NCBI GenBank assembly: GCA_945883545.1
Contig: CAMCXT010000008.1
Location: 7,396 to 71,395, forward strand
Origin: Chitinophaga pinensis
Lineage (GTDB): Bacteria > Bacteroidota > Bacteroidia > M30B66
Reading direction: 5' to 3'
Length of the DNA stretch: 64,000 nt
In this document: positions 1,657 to 61,980 of the stretch, piece by piece
Numbering within the stretch: position 1 is the stretch's first letter
How the letters are laid out: every line of letters starts with the position of its first letter
Notes under the pieces: generated by a model
The model's database searches: none
What the model was told of the DNA's origin: nothing
The model's input: the letters and a program-made list of their open reading frames with translations, nothing else
Program-made: the position numbers and the translations under genes

Positions 1657-2288
1657 ATTTAATTTATCCGTCTCAAGCCGATTATAATCGATTATATCCG
1701 TTTAAAACCGGATAACCATCTCTTTTTTCTTTTCCTTGCAACGGGGAGGGGTTGATGGTGTTCCCAACAAAAAATTCAAACCATGGTCAAGTAAAAAGTA
1801 TCAACAAGTGCTGTGAATTCTAAACTCTCCGCTTTAGCAATATTATCCAATTGCATAAATCTTCAACCAGCAACTCAAACCACAACTTGATTTAATTTAT
1901 CCGTCTCAAGCCGATTATAATCGATTATATCCGTTTAAAATCGGATAATCATCTCTTTTTTCTTTTCCTTGCAACGGGGAGGGGCCGATGGTGTTCCTAA
2001 TAAAAAAAATTCAAACCACTGTCAAGCAAAAAGTATCAACAAGTGCTGTGAATTCTAAACTCTCCGCTTTATCAATATTATCCAATTGCATAAATCTTTA
2101 ACCAGCAACTCAAACCACAACTTGATTTAATTTATCCGTCTCAAGCCGATTATAATCGATTATATCCGTTTAAAATCGGATAACCATCTCTTTTTTCTTT
2201 TCCTTGCAACGGGGAGGGGCCGATGGTGTTCCCAACAAAAAAACAAAACCACTGTCAAGCAAAAAGTATCAACAAGTGCAGTGAATTC
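1657..2288. repeat. Tandem array 1: three head-to-tail copies (period 233/235 bp) of a non-coding element; the last copy has the ~164-nt core only
   Basis: Units start at 1657, 1890 and 2125 with ATTTAATTTATCCGTCTCAAGCCG and are near identical. No conserved ORF. Confidence 0.92.
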
Positions 2289-2366: not shown

Positions 2367-3794
2367 GTGAATATCCTACATATTGCTGCAGAATGCTATC
2401 CAGCCGCTAAAGCAGGCGGATTAGGCGATGTTGTTGGCGCATTACCCAAATACCTCAATCAAGCTGGACACAAAGCCGCTGTGCTCATTCCTGGTTACCG
2501 ACAAAAATGGATCATCAACCAGCCTTTCGAACACATTTGGAGCGGACTCGTTCGCTTGGGCGACATTAAAATCCCCGTACATATTCGCCGCCACACTGGC
2601 GATTCACTTGGTTTCGAATTACTCATCGCTGATATTCCTGGTCTTTTCGATCGTGAAGGAATCTACACCGATCCGCAATCTGGCTTTGGTTATTCCGATG
2701 AAACCGAGCGATATATTGTATTTCAGCAATGTGCCTTGCAGTATATCCAATCGCTCGACCAAAAGCCCAATGTTATTCATTGCCACGATCACCACACAGG
2801 ACTCATTCCCTTTATGGTGAAACATTGCCCTGAATTCAGAAACCTTTCCCACATTCCTGCCATTTTCACCATCCACAATGGAGTATATCATGGTTCTTTC
2901 GGATGGTCAAAAGCCTGGATACTCCCATGGTATGATGCCGATGCCAACGGACTCCTCGATTGGGCCGGAAATATCAATCCGCTAGCTTGCGGCATCAAAT
3001 GCTGCTGGAAACTCACAACCGTTTCTCCTGGATATTTGCTAGAGTTGCTAGCGTCTTCAAATGGTCTTGAATGGCTTATTAGAAACGAATTGCCTAAATC
3101 GCAAGGCATTCTCAACGGTATCGATACTCAGGTTTGGGACCCCGAATCAGATCCACTCATCGAAAACCGATTTTACAACGATATCAGCAGGTTTAAGTCA
3201 GACAACAAAGCCGTTCTCAGGAAACGTTTCGACATTCATGCCGATCAACCGCTCATCACTTTTATCGGTCGCTTGGTAGCGGAAAAAGGAGCCGATCTCC
3301 TGCCTGATGCCATTGCAAAATTCCTCCACGAAGGTGGAAAAGCCTCATTTGTAGTGCTTGGAACTGGCGATCCAAATCTAAAAGATGCCTTTCTTACCAT
3401 GAAGCATCATTTTACCTCTTGGTTCGATACTTCCATCGAATACAACGAAGCTCTTTCACATCAACTCTACGCTGGAAGCGACTTCCTTGTAATGCCTTCC
3501 CGAGTTGAACCTTGCGGACTAAATCAACTCTACGCTTTCCGATATGGTACTATCCCAATCGTTAGGGCTACAGGCGGTTTAGCAGATACTGTTACAGATG
3601 TTTCACAACCAAACGGAAATGGAATTCGATTCGACCACTTCTCAGTGGATGCCCTTGCCGCAAGTTTTCATCGAGCCACTGCAGTTTATCATCATCCTGA
3701 AGCCATGAACCAACTTCGAGCACACAACATGAGTCTCGATTATAGCTGGGAAAAAGCAGCCAATTCATACATTCATATATATCAAAGCACATAA
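2367..3794 (+). CDS. glgA: Glycogen synthase (ADP-glucose type)
   Basis: ILHIAAECYPAAKAGGLGDVVGALPK N-terminal motif and full-length GT5-like sequence. The ORF opens at TTG 2316; GTG 2367 fits the family N-terminus better. Confidence 0.9.
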   Translation: MNILHIAAECYPAAKAGGLGDVVGALPKYLNQAGHKAAVLIPGYRQKWIINQPFEHIWSGLVRLGDIKIPVHIRRHTGDSLGFELLIADIPGLFDREGIYTDPQSGFGYSDETERYIVFQQCALQYIQSLDQKPNVIHCHDHHTGLIPFMVKHCPEFRNLSHIPAIFTIHNGVYHGSFGWSKAWILPWYDADANGLLDWAGNINPLACGIKCCWKLTTVSPGYLLELLASSNGLEWLIRNELPKSQGILNGIDTQVWDPESDPLIENRFYNDISRFKSDNKAVLRKRFDIHADQPLITFIGRLVAEKGADLLPDAIAKFLHEGGKASFVVLGTGDPNLKDAFLTMKHHFTSWFDTSIEYNEALSHQLYAGSDFLVMPSRVEPCGLNQLYAFRYGTIPIVRATGGLADTVTDVSQPNGNGIRFDHFSVDALAASFHRATAVYHHPEAMNQLRAHNMSLDYSWEKAANSYIHIYQST

Positions 3795-43182: not shown

Positions 43183-46119
43183 ATGTTGAACTGTCACTCA
43201 TGGTTTAGTCTACGCTATGGCACCTTATCGCCAGAGCAGCTCATTGCGCAATTGCTTGAGCTTGGCTATACGAGTGCGGCATTAACCGACATCAACACAA
43301 CCTCAGGATGCCTCGATTTTGTGCGCATCTCGAATGAGATGGGCCTACATCCTGTAATTGGCGTAGAGTTTCGCGATGATGGATTGCTCCAGTTTGTTGC
43401 TCTAGCGATTAATAATGATGGATTTGAGCTGATCAATCGGCATTTGTCGTCGAAACTTACTGAAGGAGCAACCCTAGCAGCCGAAGCTCCAGAACAATGG
43501 AATGGGCACGTTTGGGTGATTTATCCTTTGAAGAACATTCCCAAAAGAAAACTGTTTCCCAACGAATTCATAGGTCTTAGCCTTCAAGATTTGAAAAGTG
43601 TATGGAAGCCTAGAGATCCGATCCTCAACAGAGCAGTAGTTTTACAAGCATTTACCTTTCCCGACAAAGCGCATAACAATATCCATAGGCTATTGCGAGC
43701 GATCGATCAAAATACTTTACTGAGCTTACTCGACCCTCTGCAATGTGCCGCGCCTGATGCCTTTTTACTTCCACGAAAAGACCTTGTGTCTGCTTTTTCG
43801 TCATTCCCTGAAGTCATCGCGCGCAGTTTGCAGTTGCTAGAATCTTGCAATGTAGAATTTGAGTTTGGCGTATCAAAAAACCGAAAAACCTTTACTGGAT
43901 CTAAGGTGCAAGACAGGCAACTTCTCGAGAAACTAAGTTTGGATGGCATGCAATATCGTTACGGCAAGAAGAACAAAGAAGCCCAGAAAAGATTGAAGCA
44001 TGAGTTGGAGGTGATTGATAAATTAGGCTTCACACCCTATTTTCTGATCACTGAAGACATCATCCGCTATGCTCGACACCGAGGATTTTTCCATGTTGGA
44101 AGAGGGAGCGGCGCCAATAGCATTGCGGCTTACTGCTTACAAATTACGGATGTTGACCCCATCGAATTGGACCTATATTTTGAGCGATTCATCAATCCGC
44201 ACCGCACATCGCCGCCCGATTTCGATCTCGATTTTTCGTGGCGCGACCGTGATGAAATTTTGAATTACATATTTCAGCGATACGGCACCGAACATACTGC
44301 TCTAATTGCGACTTACACAACTTTCCAAGACAGGGCCGTTATTCGAGAATTGGGCAAGGTGTTCGGGTTGCCGAAATCGGAAATCGACATTCTCAGCGGA
44401 CTCAAGCAACTCCCCAAAGATGCAGATCAAATTAGCCGATTGATCTTTCGTTACGGTGAAAAAATCCATGGCTTCCCTAATCATTTGGGCATCCATGCAG
44501 GCGGAGTGATCATTTCAGAGTCGCCCATTTATCGATATACCGCCACCCAAATGCCTCCCAAGGGCTTGCCCATTACACAATTCGACATGTATGTTTCGGA
44601 AGAAGTGGGCTTATATAAATACGATATATTAAGTCAGCGCGGATTGGGACACATTCGAGAAGCCACCGAATTGATTCTCGAAAACAGGCAAATCAGTGTG
44701 GATATCCACCGGGTTTCGGAATTCAAAAAGGACTTGAAAATCAAACAGCTCATAAAGACAGGTCGAACAATGGGCTGTTTCTATGTTGAATCACCCGCGA
44801 TGCGGATGTTGTTAAGTAAACTAAAATGTGAAGATTATATCACACTGGTTGCGGCAAGCTCAATTATTCGACCGGGAGTTGCGAAATCCGGTATGATGAG
44901 AGAATACATCCACCGTTTTCACCATCCAGGAAGCTTCAGCTACATCCACCCAAAGATGGAAGAGCTCCTCAAAGAAACCTATGGGGTTATGGTTTACCAG
45001 GAGGATGTAATTAAGGTAGCGCATCATTTTGCAGGGCTAGATCCTGCCGATGCCGATATATTGCGCAGAGGAATGTCGGGGAAATTCAGGTCGGCGAAAG
45101 CCTTCCAACTCGTTGCAGATAAATTCATGCAAAACTGCCGCGATATGGGCTATCCCGAAGCGGTTTACACCGAGGTTTGGCGACAAATGGAGAGCTTTTC
45201 GGGGTATTCGTTTTCTAAAGCGCATTCTGCCTCTTTTGCCGTAGAAAGTTTTCAGAGTCTATATCTGAGAGCACATTTTCCACTGGAATTTATGACTGCC
45301 GTATTGAACAACTTCGGTGGATTTTACAAAACACAAGATTATGTGCATGAGGCACGCATGCTTGGTGCTAAAATCGAGGCGCCTTGCGTGAACAGAAGCA
45401 TGCACTTAAACAGCATTTTCGACGATTCAATATACTTAGGTTTTGTGCTTCTGCACCAGCTCGAGGAGCGGAGTTCTGCCATGATTCTCCGCGCTCGAGC
45501 GCAGAGTGGGCCCTTTCTTGGACTTGCTGATTTTGTTTCGCGCGTTAACATTGGTTTGGAACAAGTCCTTATTCTGATTCGTGTTGGAGCCTTTCGATTC
45601 ACCAGTAAACCCAAAAAAGAACTGCTTTGGGATGCACATCTTATTGTAAACAAAACAAGTGTGAAGGTGGAAAAGCCAGCACAGCTATTTCATGCCAATG
45701 AGCCAGATTACAAATTCCCAAACTTAGAAGACTCGTTTATTGAAAATGCATACGATGAGATCGAATTATTGGGATTTCCATTGTGCTCTCCATTCGATCT
45801 AATTGCCCCAACGAAAGATGAATCGATTCGAGCCAAAGAATTATGCAACAACTTAGGGAAACAGGTGCAGATTCTTGGTAGCGTGGTGGCAGTAAAAGAC
45901 ACTCGAACGGTGAAAGGCGAACGAATGAACTTTGCCACATTTGTAGATCAGGATGGCTATTTCTTCGACAGTACACATTTTCCACAAGTGGTAAAACAGT
46001 CGCCTTTCCGAGGCCGCGGCATTTATCGCCTGAAAGGAAAAGTTGCTTGTGAGTTTGGCTTCTTCAGTCTCGAGGCAAGTTACATGGAAAAGATCCCTTA
46101 CCTCGCAAGGGGATATTGA
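43183..46119 (+). CDS. dnaE2: DNA polymerase III alpha-subunit homologue, short DnaE2/ImuC-like form
   Basis: N-terminal PHP motif (LNCHSWFSLRYG), ...GRGSGANS..., ...PPDFDLDF..., ...GIHAGGV..., ...FSKAHSASFA. About 978 aa, so it lacks the long DnaE1 C-terminus. Confidence 0.8.
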   Translation: MLNCHSWFSLRYGTLSPEQLIAQLLELGYTSAALTDINTTSGCLDFVRISNEMGLHPVIGVEFRDDGLLQFVALAINNDGFELINRHLSSKLTEGATLAAEAPEQWNGHVWVIYPLKNIPKRKLFPNEFIGLSLQDLKSVWKPRDPILNRAVVLQAFTFPDKAHNNIHRLLRAIDQNTLLSLLDPLQCAAPDAFLLPRKDLVSAFSSFPEVIARSLQLLESCNVEFEFGVSKNRKTFTGSKVQDRQLLEKLSLDGMQYRYGKKNKEAQKRLKHELEVIDKLGFTPYFLITEDIIRYARHRGFFHVGRGSGANSIAAYCLQITDVDPIELDLYFERFINPHRTSPPDFDLDFSWRDRDEILNYIFQRYGTEHTALIATYTTFQDRAVIRELGKVFGLPKSEIDILSGLKQLPKDADQISRLIFRYGEKIHGFPNHLGIHAGGVIISESPIYRYTATQMPPKGLPITQFDMYVSEEVGLYKYDILSQRGLGHIREATELILENRQISVDIHRVSEFKKDLKIKQLIKTGRTMGCFYVESPAMRMLLSKLKCEDYITLVAASSIIRPGVAKSGMMREYIHRFHHPGSFSYIHPKMEELLKETYGVMVYQEDVIKVAHHFAGLDPADADILRRGMSGKFRSAKAFQLVADKFMQNCRDMGYPEAVYTEVWRQMESFSGYSFSKAHSASFAVESFQSLYLRAHFPLEFMTAVLNNFGGFYKTQDYVHEARMLGAKIEAPCVNRSMHLNSIFDDSIYLGFVLLHQLEERSSAMILRARAQSGPFLGLADFVSRVNIGLEQVLILIRVGAFRFTSKPKKELLWDAHLIVNKTSVKVEKPAQLFHANEPDYKFPNLEDSFIENAYDEIELLGFPLCSPFDLIAPTKDESIRAKELCNNLGKQVQILGSVVAVKDTRTVKGERMNFATFVDQDGYFFDSTHFPQVVKQSPFRGRGIYRLKGKVACEFGFFSLEASYMEKIPYLARGY

Positions 46120-46581
46120 AAAGTATAAAGCAGCCAGCTTAAGAAACGGTGATTCATAAAAATCATAGCAATGTAAAGGTATTGATTTCGCAAAGCGATT
46201 TTTGGGTTGATTATACCTGTCGATACAATTGAATTTTGTCAATTTCGATTTTCGAAAATACTTTATCAGACAACAATTAATAGGTTTGTCATTACTTCGG
46301 AGAATTTATCGAGTATAATACTTCAAATAAAACAAGTTAAATCCATTTTTTTCTGCAAATAAAAGTTGGCTTGTAAAAAACTTTCAATCATCTCAGAGGA
46401 TTTAAAATTCATATTCAATCAACAATTAACGCATAAATAAATACCGATATTAGGCAATCTTAAAAGCTCTAACAAAAGAAATATGAGAACTTTTAAACGC
46501 AAAATAAACAAGGTTATAAACAGAACTGTTTGTAATAAAAAAACAAGACTGTTTAAGGTATTTCTCATTTAACGAAATTTG

Positions 46582-46956
46582 CACTGGGAAGGGGATAGAT
46601 GCGGGTTCCCTTCGACAATTCAAAATAACTTGTCAAGTGAAAAATGAGAAAAGAAATCAACACGACTGTTAATTCTAATTTGATCATTCAATTCGATAGT
46701 GTTTAATTAAACCCGAACTTTCCACTGGGAAGGGGATAGATGCGGGTTCCCTGCGACAATTCAAAATAACTTGTCAAGTGAAAAAAGGAGAAAAGAAATC
46801 AACACGACTGTTAATTCTAATTTGATCATTCAATTCGATGGTATTTAACTAAATCCGAACTTTCAACTGGGAATGGGATAGATGCGGGTTCCCTTCGACA
46901 ATTCAAAATAATTTGTCAACTGGAAAATGAGAAAATAAATCAACACGACTGTTATT
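46582..46956. repeat. Tandem array 2: three copies (period 141 bp) of a non-coding element related to the core of array 1; the last copy has the core only
   Basis: Cores start at 46582, 46723 and 46864 (CACTGGGAAGGGGATAGATGCGGGTTCCC...). The linkers are also conserved. A degenerate partial copy may lie just upstream. Confidence 0.92.
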
Positions 46957-47108
46957 GGTAATGGCAATAATGACGAGCAGGTTGTGTATTCAATTATATT
47001 TTACTAGACTAGAAAATAATCTTAAAATAAAAGTAATGAGAAAAGTCAGCAAATCAATGTCATAGGCTCTTGTAATGTTGAACTCAATGTCATACCTTAG
47101 ACAAAGAG

Positions 47109-47879
47109 ATGAAAGGATTTCAAATCACAAGCAAAAAATACTTTGACGATTCTATGTCATTGATTGGCAATGAAATAGATAATCTAGTCAGTAGATTTGA
47201 TTTCAAATACAAAGACTTAGATCTTGGCTATCAAACTCAGTCTTCGGCTGTTTATTCTTCAAACATTGAAGGAAATACAATTGATTTGAATTCATTCATG
47301 AATTTCAAATTATCAAATGAAAAATTTAAACCCAGTAAAGAAATAAAAGAAATTGAAGACCTAATTCTTGCATACGATTTTGCTCAGAAAGAGATCTTAA
47401 ACCAGAAAAACTTCCTTAAAATTCATAAAATTCTATCTGAAACACTATTAATATCGAGTTTAAGAGGTAAGTATAGAAATGATAAAGTTGGAGTTTTTAG
47501 CGAGTCTGGATTAGTCTACTTTGCTATAGAATCTGAATTTCTAAAAGAAACTATGAATGAGTTATTTTCAGAAATCGGAGAAATTTTATCAAGTAATTTA
47601 AGCATTGAAGAAGTTTTTTATTTCGCATCACTTATTCACATGAAGTTTGTTCACATCCACCCATTTAGAGAAGGAAATGGTAGAACTGCAAGAATTCTTG
47701 AAAAATGGTTTATTACAACAAAACTTGGCGAAGAATTTTGGAAACTACCTTCTGAAAAGTATTATAAAGAAAAACAAGCTGATTATTACAGAAATCTAAA
47801 TTTAGGAGTGAATTATTATGAGTTGAATTATGACAAATGCTTGCCTTTTTTAACTATGCTGCCAAACTGCATGAAATAA
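47109..47879 (+). CDS. Fic-family protein (class II type with internal inhibitory motif)
   Basis: Fic motif HPFREGNGRTAR. N-terminal SSNIEG fits the [ST]xxxE[GN] inhibitory-helix motif. Confidence 0.88.
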   Translation: MKGFQITSKKYFDDSMSLIGNEIDNLVSRFDFKYKDLDLGYQTQSSAVYSSNIEGNTIDLNSFMNFKLSNEKFKPSKEIKEIEDLILAYDFAQKEILNQKNFLKIHKILSETLLISSLRGKYRNDKVGVFSESGLVYFAIESEFLKETMNELFSEIGEILSSNLSIEEVFYFASLIHMKFVHIHPFREGNGRTARILEKWFITTKLGEEFWKLPSEKYYKEKQADYYRNLNLGVNYYELNYDKCLPFLTMLPNCMK

Positions 47880-48074: not shown

Positions 48075-48605
48075 ATGAAATTTATTTTTGCCTTTTTTTT
48101 GACCGTATTTACAACAACAGTTTATTCTCAAAGATTCGACAGTCTTGAGATTCCTTCCAATTCATTTGAAAGTAGCTACCGAAAGACAAATCCTAATTTA
48201 ATGTATAAATATGACGATATATCCCAAACACACAACTACTCTAATAACTGGGACTTTGACAAAGACGGGATAAATGACGAACTGTATTTTATTGGAACAG
48301 GTGGTACGCATTTATACTATTATCTAAAAGTGATTTTGAGTACTGATAAATTACCCCGAGAATTTGATTTCATCCAATCTGACTTTCCTTTCCTAACAGC
48401 GACCGACACATTGAATATGAATAAAACACCTTTAGGTTTTGTCGTCGCAGACCTTGAAACAGACATGAAACCAACTGTTATCGTTCGTCTTGATGATAAA
48501 ACATATCAAGTGAATAAAAATAAATTGACTAAACTGAGAATCAAAACTAGAAATATTGCGATTAGCTTTGAAAATGGCAAATCAAATTACCAAAGCCTAA
48601 AATAA
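48075..48605 (+). CDS. Hypothetical secreted protein
   Basis: Signal peptide MKFIFAFFLTVFTTTVYSQ. No recognised domain. Confidence 0.5.
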   Translation: MKFIFAFFLTVFTTTVYSQRFDSLEIPSNSFESSYRKTNPNLMYKYDDISQTHNYSNNWDFDKDGINDELYFIGTGGTHLYYYLKVILSTDKLPREFDFIQSDFPFLTATDTLNMNKTPLGFVVADLETDMKPTVIVRLDDKTYQVNKNKLTKLRIKTRNIAISFENGKSNYQSLK

Positions 48606-49454: not shown

Positions 49455-49647
49455 CTCGGACTAAAGTCCGAGGCTGCGAGGAGTCCGAGGCAGCATGGAA
49501 TCCGAGGCAGCTAAGAGAAAACACAAACCTATAAAATGATCACCAACACACCCTGCAACCACGGACTTTAGTCCGTGGAAACATGGAAACAAGAACTTGT
49601 GCATTTTAAAATGGTCGCAATCGCAACCACGGTCTTTAGTCCGTGGA
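49455..49647. repeat. REP-like palindromic element cluster 1 (three full copies plus two half-sites)
   Basis: CCTCGGACTAAAGTCCGAGG (49455-49474). CCACGGACTTTAGTCCGTGG (49560-49579) and CCACGGTCTTTAGTCCGTGG (49628-49647) are in the opposite orientation. Half-sites (A)GTCCGAGGCAGC lie at ~49483 and ~49500. Confidence 0.85.
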
Positions 49648-49678
49648 AACCATGAAATTCGTGGATTTAAGACGAACC

Positions 49679-53235: not shown

Positions 53236-53265
53236 TTTGCTAAAAACACTTTTCAATTATATTTG
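53236..53265 (+). promoter_or_regulatory. Bacteroidota sigma-A type promoter for the tRNA gene (TTTG-N18-TATATTTG)
   Basis: TTTG at 53236-53239 and an exact TAnnTTTG at 53258-53265, 11 nt before the mature tRNA 5' end. Confidence 0.45.
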
Positions 53266-53276
53266 CAGCCCATTTT

Positions 53277-53350
53277 GGCGGGGTAGCTCAGATGGTTAGA
53301 GCGCAGGATTCATAACCCTGAGGTCACGGGTTCAACTCCCGTCCCCGCTA
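53277..53350 (+). tRNA. tRNA with CAT anticodon (elongator Met, or Ile2 if lysidine-modified)
   Basis: Hand-folded 74-nt cloverleaf: GGCGGGG/CCCCGCT acceptor (G1-U72), D arm GCTC-AGATGGTTA-GAGC, anticodon loop TTCATAA, T arm ACGGG-TTCAACT-CCCGT. The paired 1-72 position argues against an initiator. Confidence 0.85.
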
Positions 53351-54191: not shown

Positions 54192-54611
54192 TCAGCCCCT
54201 CAAAACCATTTCAGTCACATTCTTTAACTTAATGTTGTAGAAATTAAAATCATCCAAGCTAGGCACTTCTTCTTCGATGATATCGATAACGCAATCTTTT
54301 AAAGGAATTGACTCGAATAACAATGAGAAGACACGCCAATCCTCCGTTGATTCAAATTCGAATTGTTGTGGGGCAAGGGGAATATTTATCGCTTCTTTTA
54401 AGGCATATTTTTTCTTGCTGCCATGCACTTGAATATGAGTATATGGGGCAATGCGAATCCAACCACCACGATCATACATCCAAGGTGCTATGTATCCAAA
54501 ATCAATTTTAATGTATTGCGCTCCCATGAGAACACGAAGAATTTTCGGATTCTTTATGATCAGTTCACTAGCATCTACATTAACTAAATAAACATCCTCC
54601 GTTTTTTTCAT
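54192..54611 (-). CDS. Small protein of unknown function, paralogue family member A (translationally coupled to the WYL regulator)
   Basis: 139-aa ORF. Its ATG overlaps the WYL gene stop (TAATG). Clearly alignable with 55771-56163 and 655-1062. Confidence 0.6.
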   Translation of the reverse strand: MKKTEDVYLVNVDASELIIKNPKILRVLMGAQYIKIDFGYIAPWMYDRGGWIRIAPYTHIQVHGSKKKYALKEAINIPLAPQQFEFESTEDWRVFSLLFESIPLKDCVIDIIEEEVPSLDDFNFYNIKLKNVTEMVLRG

Positions 54612-55675
54612 TATGCTAAATTTTCAGTGAATTCCTTAAACCATTTGGGTTTTACAATTTTAACATGTCTGCCTTGGGATAAAAAGTACCTAGCAAGCTC
54701 GACAGATGCAATAATCTCAAAGCGAATAAAAGAAGTGCCTTCGTTTTCCTTCTCAATTGTTTGACTTTCATGCAGCGGATATGCTTGGAAATAATGAGTT
54801 CCTAATTGACTAACATGAATCTGAATGAGCTCCTTTTTAGCACCAGGTATTGGAAACACACCAAATACATCATTTAGATAAGAATGCACTAATTGTGGGT
54901 CGATGAAGTGATAGTTCCGATTAATAAATAAGGGCTCTGTTACTCGATCTAATCCAAATGTCCGAATCTCATCGTGGAGCTCAGAATAACCAATAACATA
55001 CCATCGATTTTCAAATTCTTTAATTAGAAAGGGATGAAGGAGTATATGATTAAAGGTGCGTTTTTTATAAGAAAAATGAATGAATGATAATGGAATCTTT
55101 TCACGACAAGCTTTGTAAATCAACTCAATATGTTCAAATCCACGTGAAGTTGGAGGAATCATCGTTTGAATAACAGGCTCCTTGTTTTCATCAACATTGG
55201 CTTTTTCTAATGTTGATGAGAGTATCTTTTCAACAGCATGGTTGAATTTATCGCTCATCCGAGTTCCTCCAATAGACCTGATGATATTAATGGCTTCGCT
55301 GATTGCATCAATTTCTTCCTGCCTTAACGAAACTCCTAAAAGGGAATATTCGGAATCCGTATACTCATATCCCCTTTCAGCTCGATTGTATCTTATAGGC
55401 GCATCAAATCCATCGGGATAAGGCAATCGCATATTCGCAATGTCCTTTTGAATCGTTTCTTCTGAAGGATAAAAATCAAGTTTGGAATGGCAAGCCTCCA
55501 TAAAGTCTACCATTTTGGGATAGCGATTCATAGAATTCCGAAGAACACTATCTATCACTTTGTACCGACGAAATGCACTTTTACTAAGGTTCACAGATTT
55601 TTTTTCGAAAAATAACAAATTATTTCCACTCCGTACAAATAATACGGAGTTCATATTGTCCTTTGTTTCATCCAA
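54611..55675 (-). CDS. WYL-domain transcriptional regulator (N-terminal HTH, central WYL, C-terminal extension)
   Basis: ...LSKSAFRRYKVIDSVLRN... N-terminal HTH-type segment. WYL core ...ILLHPFLIKEFENRWYVIGYSELHDEIRTFGLDRV... The start may be ATG 55654. Confidence 0.8.
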   Translation of the reverse strand: MDETKDNMNSVLFVRSGNNLLFFEKKSVNLSKSAFRRYKVIDSVLRNSMNRYPKMVDFMEACHSKLDFYPSEETIQKDIANMRLPYPDGFDAPIRYNRAERGYEYTDSEYSLLGVSLRQEEIDAISEAINIIRSIGGTRMSDKFNHAVEKILSSTLEKANVDENKEPVIQTMIPPTSRGFEHIELIYKACREKIPLSFIHFSYKKRTFNHILLHPFLIKEFENRWYVIGYSELHDEIRTFGLDRVTEPLFINRNYHFIDPQLVHSYLNDVFGVFPIPGAKKELIQIHVSQLGTHYFQAYPLHESQTIEKENEGTSFIRFEIIASVELARYFLSQGRHVKIVKPKWFKEFTENLA

Positions 55676-59240: not shown

Positions 59241-59275
59241 CGTATTTCGTAATTCGTATTTCGTATTTCGTATTT
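59241..59275. repeat. Heptanucleotide microsatellite (CGTATTT/CGTAATT) x5
   Basis: CGTATTT CGTAATT CGTATTT CGTATTT CGTATTT, flanked by the 10-bp inverted repeat GTACAACGTA (59235-59244) / TACGTTGTAC (59301-59310). Confidence 0.85.
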
Positions 59276-59342
59276 CGCTTATTCACAACGTTGTAATTAA
59301 TACGTTGTACGTTGCACCTATTTAGCTAATACGATCATTCAT

Positions 59343-59519
59343 CCACGGTCTAAAGTTCGAGGCTACGAATAATCCTAAATTATTTGATTAAGATTGGGGC
59401 ATCCTCCCCCCGGACTAAAGTCCGAGGCTGAGGGGAATTAATTGTAGCACTTTTCCCTTTCTCCTTTCCACTTCGCTAATACGATCATTCATCCCCGGAC
59501 TAAAGTCCGAGGCTGCAGG
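59343..59519. repeat. REP-like palindromic element cluster 2 (three copies, same family as 49455-49647)
   Basis: CCACGGTCTAAAGTTCGAGGCTACG (59343, degenerate), CCCCGGACTAAAGTCCGAGGCTGAGGGG (~59408), CCCCGGACTAAAGTCCGAGGCTGCAGG (59493). Copies 1 and 3 are both preceded by GCTAATACGATCATTCATCC. Confidence 0.85.
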
Positions 59520-59583
59520 TAATTAAGTGTAGCAAATTATGCTAAAGACTCAATACTAAGTACTCAAGACTCAATACCAAAGA

Positions 59584-61980
59584 CTAATTCACCTGCACCA
59601 ACCTCGTCGCTACCCTGCCATCTGCCGTAACCACACGAACCAAATAACTGCCAGAAGGAAGGTGCGACACTGGCAATTTAACACTGTGGTTTCCTTTCGA
59701 AACCGGAATGCGCCCCAATGATCTTCCTTGGAGGTCGTTCAGTTCAACATATTCAACAACTTCGTCTTTCCAGGTAATTTCAACTAGATCTTTAGCAGGA
59801 TTCGGAAAAACCATCAATTCGAAGCTCGAATCTTTCGCGGTTTTCAGACCTAAACTGCTGTCGATTTCTGCAAAAACATATTCTCCAAGCATCACACTGT
59901 CTAAAACGAAATAGCCGAATTTATCGGTTATGCTTGTGAATGTGGTTCTTGCAGCATCGGTTACTTGCCAATCGCTGCGATTGTCGGGGCGATACAACAA
60001 AAATAATTTTGATTCGTCGGTTACCAAATCTTGGTCTAGCCAACCTGCTGAAGAGCTAGCAGTTCGGCCATTGTACGAAAACTTCATCGTTGCTTCAAAG
60101 CCAGGCTTCAAAATCCCATCTACCTTCCAATAACGGTTAGGCGACAAACGATACATCGCAAACGGCTGCTTAAATGGATCTGGCTTCACCCAAAAATGAT
60201 CTACTCGAAGTAACACAGAATCCTGAATAGCATTCACATCAACTTCCAAAAGTGAGTTGGTCCATGCGGAATTTGCAGCTGTCTTGATAAACCGCTCTTC
60301 GCCCGTAACTGCCTGAGAAATCTTCTCTCCACGGTTCAGGTAAACCATCACAGGTTCAAAGTCGATGTCAACATCCACATAACCATTCGGACCACTCAAC
60401 AAGGCTGATCGGGTTTCAAGACTAAAGTCTGGACGTCGAAACGCGATTTCAAGTGGTACATTTTGGTAATTGTGTGTGTTTCCAGCCGATTTCTGACTGT
60501 AAAACACACGCACGCCTGCTCCAACCAAGGCAGTTGAATCCACTTCAAAACCAGCCCAGCCAGGAGTATCCACCCAATCGGCAAAATAATCGTTGAGATC
60601 CAAACCTGTTGGAGCTTCCAAAGCATCGCGCAGATCGTTCGAATTGGCATCAGCGAAACTGTAGGTTTGCATGTAATTCCGTAATCCCACAAAAAACAAA
60701 CTGTCGCCCATGTAGGTGCGCAAGGTGTGAATCTTGTCGGAAGGCAATTCATACGTGTGGTTGCTGTAAGTATAATCGTTCGGAACGTTGCTCAAGGGCC
60801 AATATCCACCATCGCGCACATGTGCGAAATTCAACATCAATCGGTGATTTACGCGCACTTCACTATCGTAGGTAGAACGCGAAATCAACCATTCATCGAA
60901 CAAACGCTCAGTGTAGGATGCAAAACCTTCATTCAACCACATGTGAGCAGCCGATTCACATGTCGCCAAATCGCCAAACCAATGGTGCGAAAGCTCATGT
61001 GCCATAATGTGCTGATTACCTGAAGCTCCAGCGCTCAATAAATCGCGTGGAAATGCAATGTTTGTAGCATGCTCCATCGCGCCTGCTTGAAACGGAACCG
61101 AAACATAACCCACACGATCCCACTTGTAAGGACCAAAATGTTCCTCGAAAAGATGAAAGATCGGCTCCAAACTCACAAACGAATTCTTCATCGTGGTTGT
61201 ATCCGCGGCAAGCGCTACCAACTTCACGTTCAGCGCAGGATTCAGCAAACTGTTGTAGGTGTAATTCACTTCCTGAAAAGGCGCTACAGCCACCGATGCC
61301 AAATAGGTCGGAATCTGCTGATTCAACTGCCAAACCATTGTGCGCAGGTTGTTTTCCACTACGTTGGATAGGAGAAGCCCGCCACAGTATGCTTTCAAGT
61401 TAGAAGGGGTAATCACAGAAACAGTGAAGGTGCTGCGTTCTACGAAATTGTCGAAACAAGGAAACCACACTCGCCCGAAGTTGTGCGGAATCGCATCGAA
61501 TCCAACACCAATATTGTACGCATAATTGCCCGAAAAACTGAAGCCTCCAAACCCCGATGCGTCTTCTACCGGAGTACCTTGATAGAACACTTCGACAGAT
61601 GATGAATCGCTGGTATTCAAGGCTTCTGAAAGTGTGATGTTCAATTGCGGATCGGTGTGACTAAACACTAAAACGTTACCGTTCTGCCGCACCGAATCAA
61701 CCGTTAGGCCTTCCAAATCCAACACAATCGAACTGATTTGATCCACCTTCGCTTTAAAATCCACCACGCATCGAGCATGCAATTCGTTCACTGGAAGTGT
61801 CGAAAAATCTAGATAAATCGAATAATGTGTGATATTGATACTGTCGCTTCGCGTATCGATATAATCGGAGGCTTGATTCCTGTTTGATTTGGTCTTGTTG
61901 CTGCACTGTGCGGAGGCTTGAGCCACAACGAATTGCGATACAAGTAAACTTGTAAAAAGCAGTAAACTTTTCATTTTCAT
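59584..61980 (-). CDS. M1-family zinc aminopeptidase with T9SS C-terminal sorting domain
   Basis: GAMEH, HELSHHWFGD (HExxH), WLNEGFASY. Signal peptide. C-terminal ...VFPNPAKDLVEI...GSYLVRVVTADGRVATRLVQVN. Confidence 0.88.
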   Translation of the reverse strand: MKMKSLLLFTSLLVSQFVVAQASAQCSNKTKSNRNQASDYIDTRSDSINITHYSIYLDFSTLPVNELHARCVVDFKAKVDQISSIVLDLEGLTVDSVRQNGNVLVFSHTDPQLNITLSEALNTSDSSSVEVFYQGTPVEDASGFGGFSFSGNYAYNIGVGFDAIPHNFGRVWFPCFDNFVERSTFTVSVITPSNLKAYCGGLLLSNVVENNLRTMVWQLNQQIPTYLASVAVAPFQEVNYTYNSLLNPALNVKLVALAADTTTMKNSFVSLEPIFHLFEEHFGPYKWDRVGYVSVPFQAGAMEHATNIAFPRDLLSAGASGNQHIMAHELSHHWFGDLATCESAAHMWLNEGFASYTERLFDEWLISRSTYDSEVRVNHRLMLNFAHVRDGGYWPLSNVPNDYTYSNHTYELPSDKIHTLRTYMGDSLFFVGLRNYMQTYSFADANSNDLRDALEAPTGLDLNDYFADWVDTPGWAGFEVDSTALVGAGVRVFYSQKSAGNTHNYQNVPLEIAFRRPDFSLETRSALLSGPNGYVDVDIDFEPVMVYLNRGEKISQAVTGEERFIKTAANSAWTNSLLEVDVNAIQDSVLLRVDHFWVKPDPFKQPFAMYRLSPNRYWKVDGILKPGFEATMKFSYNGRTASSSAGWLDQDLVTDESKLFLLYRPDNRSDWQVTDAARTTFTSITDKFGYFVLDSVMLGEYVFAEIDSSLGLKTAKDSSFELMVFPNPAKDLVEITWKDEVVEYVELNDLQGRSLGRIPVSKGNHSVKLPVSHLPSGSYLVRVVTADGRVATRLVQVN

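Follow-up and report, generated by a model that had tools for sequence, protein, structure and literature searches.

A non-coding tandem repeat family of freshwater Flavobacteriales with putative promoter-bearing units

A 64-kb stretch of contig CAMCXT010000008.1 (39% G+C, gene content typical of Bacteroidota; hereafter the window) carries two tandem arrays built on one related core. The window matches EUL_048, a metagenome-assembled genome of Flavobacteriales. The arrays belong to a lineage-restricted family of non-coding tandem repeats without a described counterpart, found in few hosts and patchily among them. The reading that we favour, tentatively and from the sequences compared here, is that each unit bears a promoter and makes non-coding transcripts from the + strand.

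Tandem Repeats Finder detected array 1 with a period of 235 nucleotides (nt), 2.7 copies and 94% matches, and array 2 with a period of 142 nt, 2.7 copies and 92% matches. Alignment and profile searches with nhmmer placed three cores in each array. Array 1 additionally carries an upstream (U) module before each core.

1657-2288, + strand: array 1, three units of about 235 nt arranged as U module, core and spacer twice, then U module and core (Tandem Repeats Finder, sequence, Pfam domains of neighbours).
1728-1829, + strand: core of array 1 unit 1 (nhmmer E = 1e-31 with the array-1-type profile; alignment).
1961-2064, + strand: core of array 1 unit 2, a TTCCT variant with an A-run 2 nt longer (alignment and nhmmer).
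2196-2295, + strand: core of array 1 unit 3, the final unit, with the glgA start 72 nt downstream (alignment and nhmmer).
46573-46954, + strand: array 2, three units of 141-142 nt arranged as core and spacer twice, then core (Tandem Repeats Finder).
46575-46679, + strand: core of array 2 unit 1 (nhmmer profile).
46713-46821, + strand: core of array 2 unit 2 (nhmmer profile).
46854-46961, + strand: core of array 2 unit 3, with C to A and G to T at 46865 and 46874.

All six units align co-linearly and on the same strand over about 95-110 nt. This bears out the sequence-only reading of this DNA, which had proposed, for positions 1738-1820 (inside the core of array 1 unit 1), that both arrays share one core in the same order and orientation. 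Every block that it had listed (GGGRAGGGG, GATG, GTTCCC, TGTCAAG, the A-run, ATCAACA and CTGTKAATTC) is present in the alignment, and its GGGGA...TTCCT in array 1 unit 2 agrees with the sequence. With a hidden Markov model built from array-1-type units only, array-2 units were the top non-self matches in the window (E = 1.4e-4 and 1.5e-3; the next had E > 3), and the reciprocal search from array 2 to array 1 gave E = 8e-4. A composite core pattern matched five times, against none expected in shuffles. These reciprocal profile matches, together with the composite pattern, place the similarity of the two arrays beyond chance. The profile search found no additional core copies in the window beyond both arrays; degenerate copies border array 2 at 46499-46640 (63% identity), with fragments at 46988-47052.

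Copy number differs between assemblies. On European Nucleotide Archive contig k141_1101330, from the same organism (locus L001, 7974-8517; locus L061, 2152-3001), each array has two units to the window's three. The difference may reflect true copy-number variation or collapse during short-read assembly, and a copy number of three is not necessarily fixed. Contigs L002, L003, L014 and L021 terminate within their arrays.

Relatives came from a single pattern scan of the genome collection, a single one of the metagenome collection, and look-ups of proteins encoded nearby. Loci L001-L004 and L006 come from the same species and are syntenic at glgA. A diverged array-1 type with units of about 330 nt lies 3' of an opp-like permease gene in L021, and the array-2 type recurs in L015 and in L014, where at least four units stand 5' of an AraC-type gene. 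A third type ('P-type') consists of 3-5 units of 271 nt in L062, L063 and L068; these loci are syntenic with L021 and continue into a convergent gene. One further locus, L010 from a Flavobacteriaceae metagenome-assembled genome, has only the 25-nt module CGGGGAGGGGATTGGTGTTCCCC in common and a profile score at the level of chance matches, which makes it a probable but unproven relative. The remaining pattern hits (L005, L007-L009, L011-L013, L016-L020 and L022) were discarded by profile score as chance matches in coding regions or unrelated hairpins.

The family always takes the form of arrays of 2-5 units, and its hosts are a small number of uncultured freshwater Flavobacteriales/Bacteroidota. 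Where relatives have the orthologous sites (glgA at 69-74% identity, the permease at 59%), these hold short intergenic gaps instead of arrays, as expected for a recently spread, amplified cassette. Two scans of viral contigs and a plasmid BLAST search returned no true matches to the element. With Rfam 15, only two window tRNAs passed the gathering thresholds, and E-value searches with both arrays and five related loci reached at best E = 0.11 (RF03532, 23 bits against a gathering threshold of 100). The suggestion that the element is undescribed has thus held up against Rfam, plasmid and viral sequences.

Constraint lies in the 5' half of the core and, in array 1, in the U module upstream of it. 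Compared with strain L003, in which fourfold-degenerate sites of glgA are 90% identical to those of the window, there are no differences in the U module or the 5' half of the core; substitutions concentrate in two places, the A-run and the 20 nt that follow GTCAAG. Profile searches from one type to another recovered no more of the core than its 5' half (nhmmer model positions 5-60 of 78). The locus at which L021, L062 and L068 are syntenic (permease 82% identical) has kept islands separated by unalignable DNA: ATTATCCG, AATCGTTTATA, TTGCAAC-GGGRAGGGG, TTCCC with the A-run, and TCAAG. The U module is conserved in L021 and partly so in L062 and L068, with its 39-40-nt distance to TTGCAAC kept; it is a putative upstream regulatory region with activator sites.

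1660-1727, + strand, repeated at 1893-1960 and 2128-2195: U module of the array-1 type, with TTATCCG twice as a direct repeat and once inverted, and the 12-bp palindrome CGATTATAATCG.
1792-1811, + strand: stretch of fixed length, 20 nt, between GTCAAG and TGTGAATTC; between strains, no part of the unit evolves faster than this stretch and the A-run region (differences at 4-8 of the 20 positions).

Neither strand of the element is coding. Short open reading frames (ORFs) occur in every unit, among them MVFPTK... on the + strand and hydrophobic ORFs of 22-40 amino acids (aa) on the - strand of array 2, and gene finders annotate 60-aa ORFs in L068. We found no synonymous excess in any frame on either strand; the frames, starts and lengths of these ORFs, SD+ATG mini-ORFs among them, are not conserved, and changes in A-run length put them out of frame. 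A 98-aa ORF spans the repeat units of L014 (33-329), where the period of 141 nt is a multiple of 3; it would probably be mis-annotated as a repeat protein.

Transcription start-site mapping in F. psychrophilum has defined a sigma-A -7 box, TAnnTTTG with the variant TAnnTTGY (SM5), at -12 to -5, together with a -33 TTG (Guerin et al. 2021, PMC9723704). Every repeat type contains a box-like octamer that ends 3-4 nt before the G-run. The P-type reads TTTG-N20-TACATTGC-AAC(C/T)-GGGAAGGGGG, a 6/6 match to TAnnTTGY, and in 10 units its box and -33 element are invariant while the spacer varies. L010 reads TTG-N20-TATCTTTA-ACC-GGGG (box 5/6) and L014 reads TTG-N20-AACTTTCC, so that a -33 TTG at N20 is present in the P-type, L010 and L014. 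Intergenic DNA of the window is 2.8-fold enriched in TAnnTTTG, which argues that this organism uses such promoters. Folding from the predicted +1 puts a stem at the extreme 5' end in most units. An RNA hairpin fits this stem better than a dimeric DNA site does, because the loop varies in length between 12 and 16 nt and a G-U pair persists in the array-1 type.

1732-1739, + strand, also 1965-1972 and 2200-2207: array 1 -7-box-like octamer TTCCTTGC, 5/6 to TAnnTTGY, ending 3 nt before the G-run.
1743-1765, + strand, also 1976-1998 and 2211-2233: array 1 G-run and GGGGA/UUCCC stem GGGGAGGGGTTGATGGTGTTCCC, 5 bp with a 13-nt loop; predicted transcription start.
46574-46582, + strand: array 2 unit 1 -7-box-like site GAAATTTGC, with GAAATTTG 5/6 to TAnnTTTG and AAATTTGC 5/6 to TAnnTTGY.
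46716-46723 and 46858-46865, + strand: boxes of the internal array 2 units, AACTTTCC/AACTTTCA, weaker at 3-4/6.
46586-46610, + strand, also 46727-46751 and 46869-46893: array 2 G-run and GGGAA/UUCCC stem GGGAAGGGGATAGATGCGGGTTCCC, 15-nt loop; predicted start.
46281-46288, + strand: exact TAnnTTTG box TAGGTTTG in AT-rich non-coding DNA about 300 nt 5' of array 2; the L015 contig begins at about 46284, so the box falls outside it.

We infer that the TTGCAAC / CTTTCC block would be a Bacteroidetes-type sigma-A -7 region rather than an RNA pairing partner, and that the remainder of the core would form the first 30-60 nt of a + strand transcript. In all types, transcription would start at the first or second G of GGGRAGGGG. 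The RNA would open with a 5'-terminal stem-loop (GGGRA/UUCCC, with a G-rich loop) and continue as an A-rich, essentially unstructured tail, the last 20-30 nt of which would evolve freely. The U module of the array-1 type would sit at about -48 to -85, where an activator is expected. Arrays would then act as tandem copies of a portable promoter/leader cassette making short + strand non-coding RNAs, and the last unit could read on into glgA or the Fic gene. The exact box TAGGTTTG is a possible additional promoter reading through array 2.

Several observations weigh against this account of the units. A -33 TTG at the expected spacing, about 19-21 nt 5' of the -7 box, is absent from both window arrays and from L021, and the window boxes are degenerate: array 1 has TT in place of the highly conserved TA, and the internal units of array 2 match at 3-4/6. 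The GGGRA/UUCCC stem shows no compensatory pairs, its variation being one-sided (G-U versus A-U, G-C versus G-U), and the register of the 5' stem differs between types. Neither array contains an intrinsic terminator, with no hairpin and U-run in any unit; transcript ends are therefore undefined, and the units are not typical small RNA (sRNA) genes. The comparison spans about five lineages and has low comparative power, and the -7 box was recognised after inspecting the sequences rather than predicted beforehand. Scans of the window for sigma-70-type promoters and terminators stayed at background level. By inspection we also set aside three other promoter assignments: an extracytoplasmic function (ECF) sigma promoter on the - strand (GGAAC...CGTT), with a spacing of 16-20 nt that differs between types; a - strand Bacteroidetes promoter (TTGACA/TTTTTG), inconsistently spaced between types; and a sigma-54 (-24/-12) promoter, for which there is no GG at -24.

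The sequence-only reading had seen in these cores two mutually exclusive hairpins, and hence a switch, in which the purine tract alternates between the upstream pyrimidine tract and UUCCC; a variant would form both helices as an H-type pseudoknot. A structured regulatory RNA of this kind is very unlikely. Both partners of the purine tract are indeed complementary to it in the six window copies, where G-U pairs are needed and only the + strand will serve, and in unit 46854-46961 the double change of C to A and G to U preserves a pair in the pseudoknot register. The pseudoknot score, however, was matched by 66 of 500 shuffles; that single compensatory change is not significant, and the P-type does not have the pseudoknot. 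Single-sequence folds of all three types, on both strands, were not more stable than dinucleotide shuffles (z mostly about +0.4 to +2), and a joint RNAalifold of 18 units retained as its sole stem the 5-bp GGGRA/UUCCC (-5 kcal/mol). The upstream pyrimidine:purine hairpin shows no covariation, its register differs between the arrays, and first units (array 2 unit 1) are mismatched. Moreover, the tract occupies the position of the -7 box and so probably lies 5' of the transcript start. P-type units lack the upstream pyrimidine tract and the ATG in the loop, along with both CTTGTCAAG and the ACA..TGT palindrome, so two exclusive hairpins are not a feature of the family. What all types share is a TTGCAAC-like block, GGGRAGGGG, TTCCC 12-16 nt further on, the A-run, AACCA, TCAAG and TCAAC. 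Of the wider proposal of a family of regulatory or decoy RNAs or a protein-binding module, the related non-coding cores are real and the switch architecture is not supported. The + strand is the more likely functional strand, given the need for G-U wobble and the 12-16-nt loop variation. TGTCAAG and ATCAACA had been offered as binding blocks: TGTCAAG is invariant between strains, but the P-type keeps only TCAAG and TCAAC, ATCAACA lies inside the fastest-evolving 20 nt, and the 3' blocks are among the least constrained. Two other folds were rejected by inspection: a preQ1-I-like pseudoknot with an A-rich tail, whose loop-tail pairing occurs in array 1 only, and a G-quadruplex, for which G-tracts are too few.

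Other explanations place the function in DNA or dispense with function. The arrays could serve a regulator or recombinase as binding sites, such as an operator GGGRA-N12-16-TYCCC over the start with arm-like TTATCCG repeats in the U module, marking a recombination-prone intergenic site; we consider this unlikely. Palindromes that need no G-U pairs (CGATTATAATCG, ACA-N4-5-TGT and CTTG-T-CAAG, which is impossible as an RNA hairpin) speak for it, as do the position of arrays at synteny breakpoints with variable neighbours, their absence from relatives, and block spacing that is conserved where the intervening sequence is not. Yet only GGGRA/TYCCC is universal, its 4-bp variation in spacing is unfavourable for a dimer on duplex DNA, and as DNA the repeat is imperfect in the array-1 type; the P-type has neither CTTGTCAAG nor ACA..TGT. 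The window and related loci hold no integrase, transposase or consistently linked regulator nearby, and neither terminal inverted repeats nor target-site duplications accompany the arrays. A selfish or neutral minisatellite that reached a handful of intergenic sites and grows and shrinks by unequal recombination, its apparent conservation reflecting recent spread, is rather improbable. It would accommodate the patchy presence, the copy-number differences between assemblies, the degenerate flanking copies, the concerted evolution of units within strains and a 5' half that is near-identical in window array 1 and L021 at unrelated loci. It sits badly with the retention of the same islands in L021 and in L062/L068 amid unalignable DNA, with a U module and 5' core that are far more conserved within the species than fourfold-degenerate sites, and with a block order and spacing common to three sequence types. 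A search for inverted repeats gave only short internal palindromes, against a miniature inverted-repeat transposable element or transposon remnant, and a clustered regularly interspaced short palindromic repeat (CRISPR) array was rejected since the whole unit, 'spacer' included, is repeated, unlike unique spacers.

Further readings assign the transcripts a partner or a product. We strongly doubt that the units make an RNA that binds the anti-Shine-Dalgarno (anti-SD) sequence, in which the arms GGGRAGGG and GGUGUUCC would be a split complement of the 16S tail ...GGAACACCUCCUUUCU-3' and GGAGG would lie 5 nt before AUG/GUG. As bS21 normally hides the tail in Bacteroidia, such RNAs would engage only bS21-free ribosomes, like the rpsU mRNA; strong SD sequences in Flavobacteriales are otherwise confined to rpsU (PMC9976891). 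Against the assumed tail, its end confirmed by ACCUCCUUUCU in PMC7797042, array-1 units are the best sites in the window on either strand (-20.9 to -21.3 kcal/mol; 0.3% of permuted tails are as good). L010 reaches -23.1 kcal/mol, a value that 0 of 2000 permuted tails equalled; the P-type gives -17.6 and array 2 -15.9. This pairing was proposed post hoc, as one of many tried, and good pairing with a pyrimidine tail is to be expected of any purine tract. It also depends on five assumed bases at the start of the tail, which probably lie buried in the 30S subunit; array 2 and the P-type have not kept GGUGU, the partner of the accessible ACACC, AUG/GUG is missing from the P-type, and short ORFs are not conserved. 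Guide RNAs (gRNAs) of the dCas12f-sigmaE RNA-guided transcription system offer another precedent, being 85-105 nt long, sometimes tandem, present in Flavobacteriales, placed directly 3' of dcas12f and built on stem-loop scaffolds (Hoffmann et al. 2026, PMC13472631). The similar length of the units, the near identity of their tandem copies, the conserved 5' part followed by 20 variable nt at the 3' end and the shared bacterial order would suit orphan guides or target sites of that system. We nevertheless find this exceedingly improbable: Pfam detects no TnpB/Cas12f or sigma-70 r2/r4 domain in 28 scanned window ORFs or in the genes of related loci, and no stable fold or scaffold forms from the predicted 5' end. 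Tandem small-protein genes, whether Ldr/Ibs-type type I toxin-antitoxin repeats or peptide precursors, are barely credible. Every unit has its short ORFs, but almost every difference is non-synonymous whichever frame is read, the ORFs are conserved neither in length nor in start or frame, and the hydrophobicity merely follows from a T-rich - strand.

The settings of the arrays vary with type. Array 1 lies between divergent genes, array 2 between co-directional genes and P-type arrays between convergent genes, so no single role in a 5' or 3' untranslated region (UTR) fits; the convergent neighbours of the P-type exclude a reading confined to 5'-UTRs. Array ends fall at differing points of the unit.

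1116-1538, - strand: left neighbour of array 1, a divergent 140-aa membrane ORF (Pfam scan).
2367-3794, + strand: right neighbour of array 1, glgA with a GTG start, with glgC next (Pfam scan).
Ending at 46119, + strand: left neighbour of array 2, a DNA polymerase III alpha-like gene (Pfam scan).
47109-47879, + strand: right neighbour of array 2, a Fic-domain gene (Pfam scan).

A 450-nt AT-rich non-coding stretch (46120-46570) precedes array 2 and includes the decayed unit at 46499-46640; L015 conserves the larger part of this stretch, from about 46284 on. On the other side, the Fic-domain protein (47109-47879) has an intact HPFxxGNGR motif and is followed by a 176-aa ORF (48075-48605) without a Pfam match. 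L015 shares the upstream flank and array of window array 2 and carries a different downstream gene, for a small secreted-looking protein, which marks the region downstream of array 2 as a variable spot.

Elsewhere the window holds a textbook Bacteroidetes promoter, TTG-N18-TATATTTG at 53238-53265, ending 12 nt before a tRNA gene (53277-53350), which offers an internal standard for the promoter geometry of this organism. A second repeat family consists of hairpins resembling repetitive extragenic palindromes (REPs), with the form CC(N)CGGACTAAAGTCCG(N)GG(CTGC), clustered in two intergenic regions.

49455-49510, 49560-49580 and 49625-49648: first cluster of REP-like hairpins, a 17-nt tandem repeat in Tandem Repeats Finder.
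59335-59360, 59410-59432 and 59495-59518: second cluster of REP-like hairpins.

Intergenic 7-nt microsatellites, CGTATTT x5.3 (59241-59277) and AAGACTC-like x5.9 (59545-59585), lie 5' of a 798-aa ORF (59584-61980, - strand) and are candidate slippage tracts. A WYL/WCX-domain regulator (54611-55675) and a 139-aa ORF without a Pfam match (54192-54611), both on the - strand, could form a defence-associated or regulatory pair.

If the units are indeed promoters, they represent a compact, portable promoter/leader cassette from uncultured Flavobacteriales that amplifies in tandem beside unrelated genes (glycogen synthesis, Fic-domain). Few genetic parts exist for this group, whose promoter turnover has received little study. 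Were the units instead the source of a functional small RNA, that RNA would be out of the ordinary in being rich in purines and unstructured, and in conserving its 5' end while the 3' end runs free. In the very doubtful event that they bind the anti-SD, they would constitute a second natural class of anti-SD-binding RNA in Flavobacteriales besides the rpsU mRNA, read or titrated only by bS21-lacking ribosomes, and an amplified non-coding locus would be tied to ribosome heterogeneity. The first reading is corrected here in that we see no evidence for an RNA switch, and the analysis also yields a defined predicted start site. For a narrow family with a putative function, the practical weight is moderate.

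Tandemly duplicated sRNA genes are known from Listeria (LhrC1-4), Vibrio (Qrr) and Pseudomonas (PrrF1/2). The arrays resemble them in their near-identical intergenic units of 100-300 nt, each with a possible promoter of its own, and in having a second locus elsewhere; they differ in having no terminator, stable structure or recognisable seed, in a 3' part that is the least conserved, and in a narrower and patchier distribution. Promoter-carrying intergenic repeats and putative mobile promoters, such as the Correia elements of Neisseria, are a further parallel. Like these, the arrays set promoter-like sequence beside unrelated genes (glgA, Fic, an AraC-type regulator, an opp operon), and relatives lack them at the orthologous positions. 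Unlike them, they have no terminal inverted repeats or target duplications, never occur as single insertions and have no identified mobility mechanism. The gRNA arrays of dCas12f-sigmaE (PMC13472631) share the bacterial order, tandem units of about 90-100 nt and a variable 3' end, whereas linked dcas12f/rpoE genes and a structured scaffold are missing here. With the extended Shine-Dalgarno of rpsU (PMC9976891), the likeness is a purine tract complementary to the 16S 3' tail and followed by a start codon in an SD-avoiding lineage; in the arrays this complementarity is split by a 5-8-nt bulge, relies on G-U pairs, is accompanied by no conserved ORF and is not kept in the array-2 and P types. The sigma-A promoters of Flavobacterium (PMC9723704) share with the arrays an octamer with an invariant TT at box positions 5-6, 3-4 nt before the G-run, and, in the relatives, a TTG or TTTG exactly 20 nt upstream. 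Compared with those promoters, the window boxes miss the TA (array 1) or match at 3-5/6 (array 2). The arrays are further distinguished by conservation that extends 30-60 nt into the predicted transcript, and by a putative promoter repeated 2-5 times head to tail.

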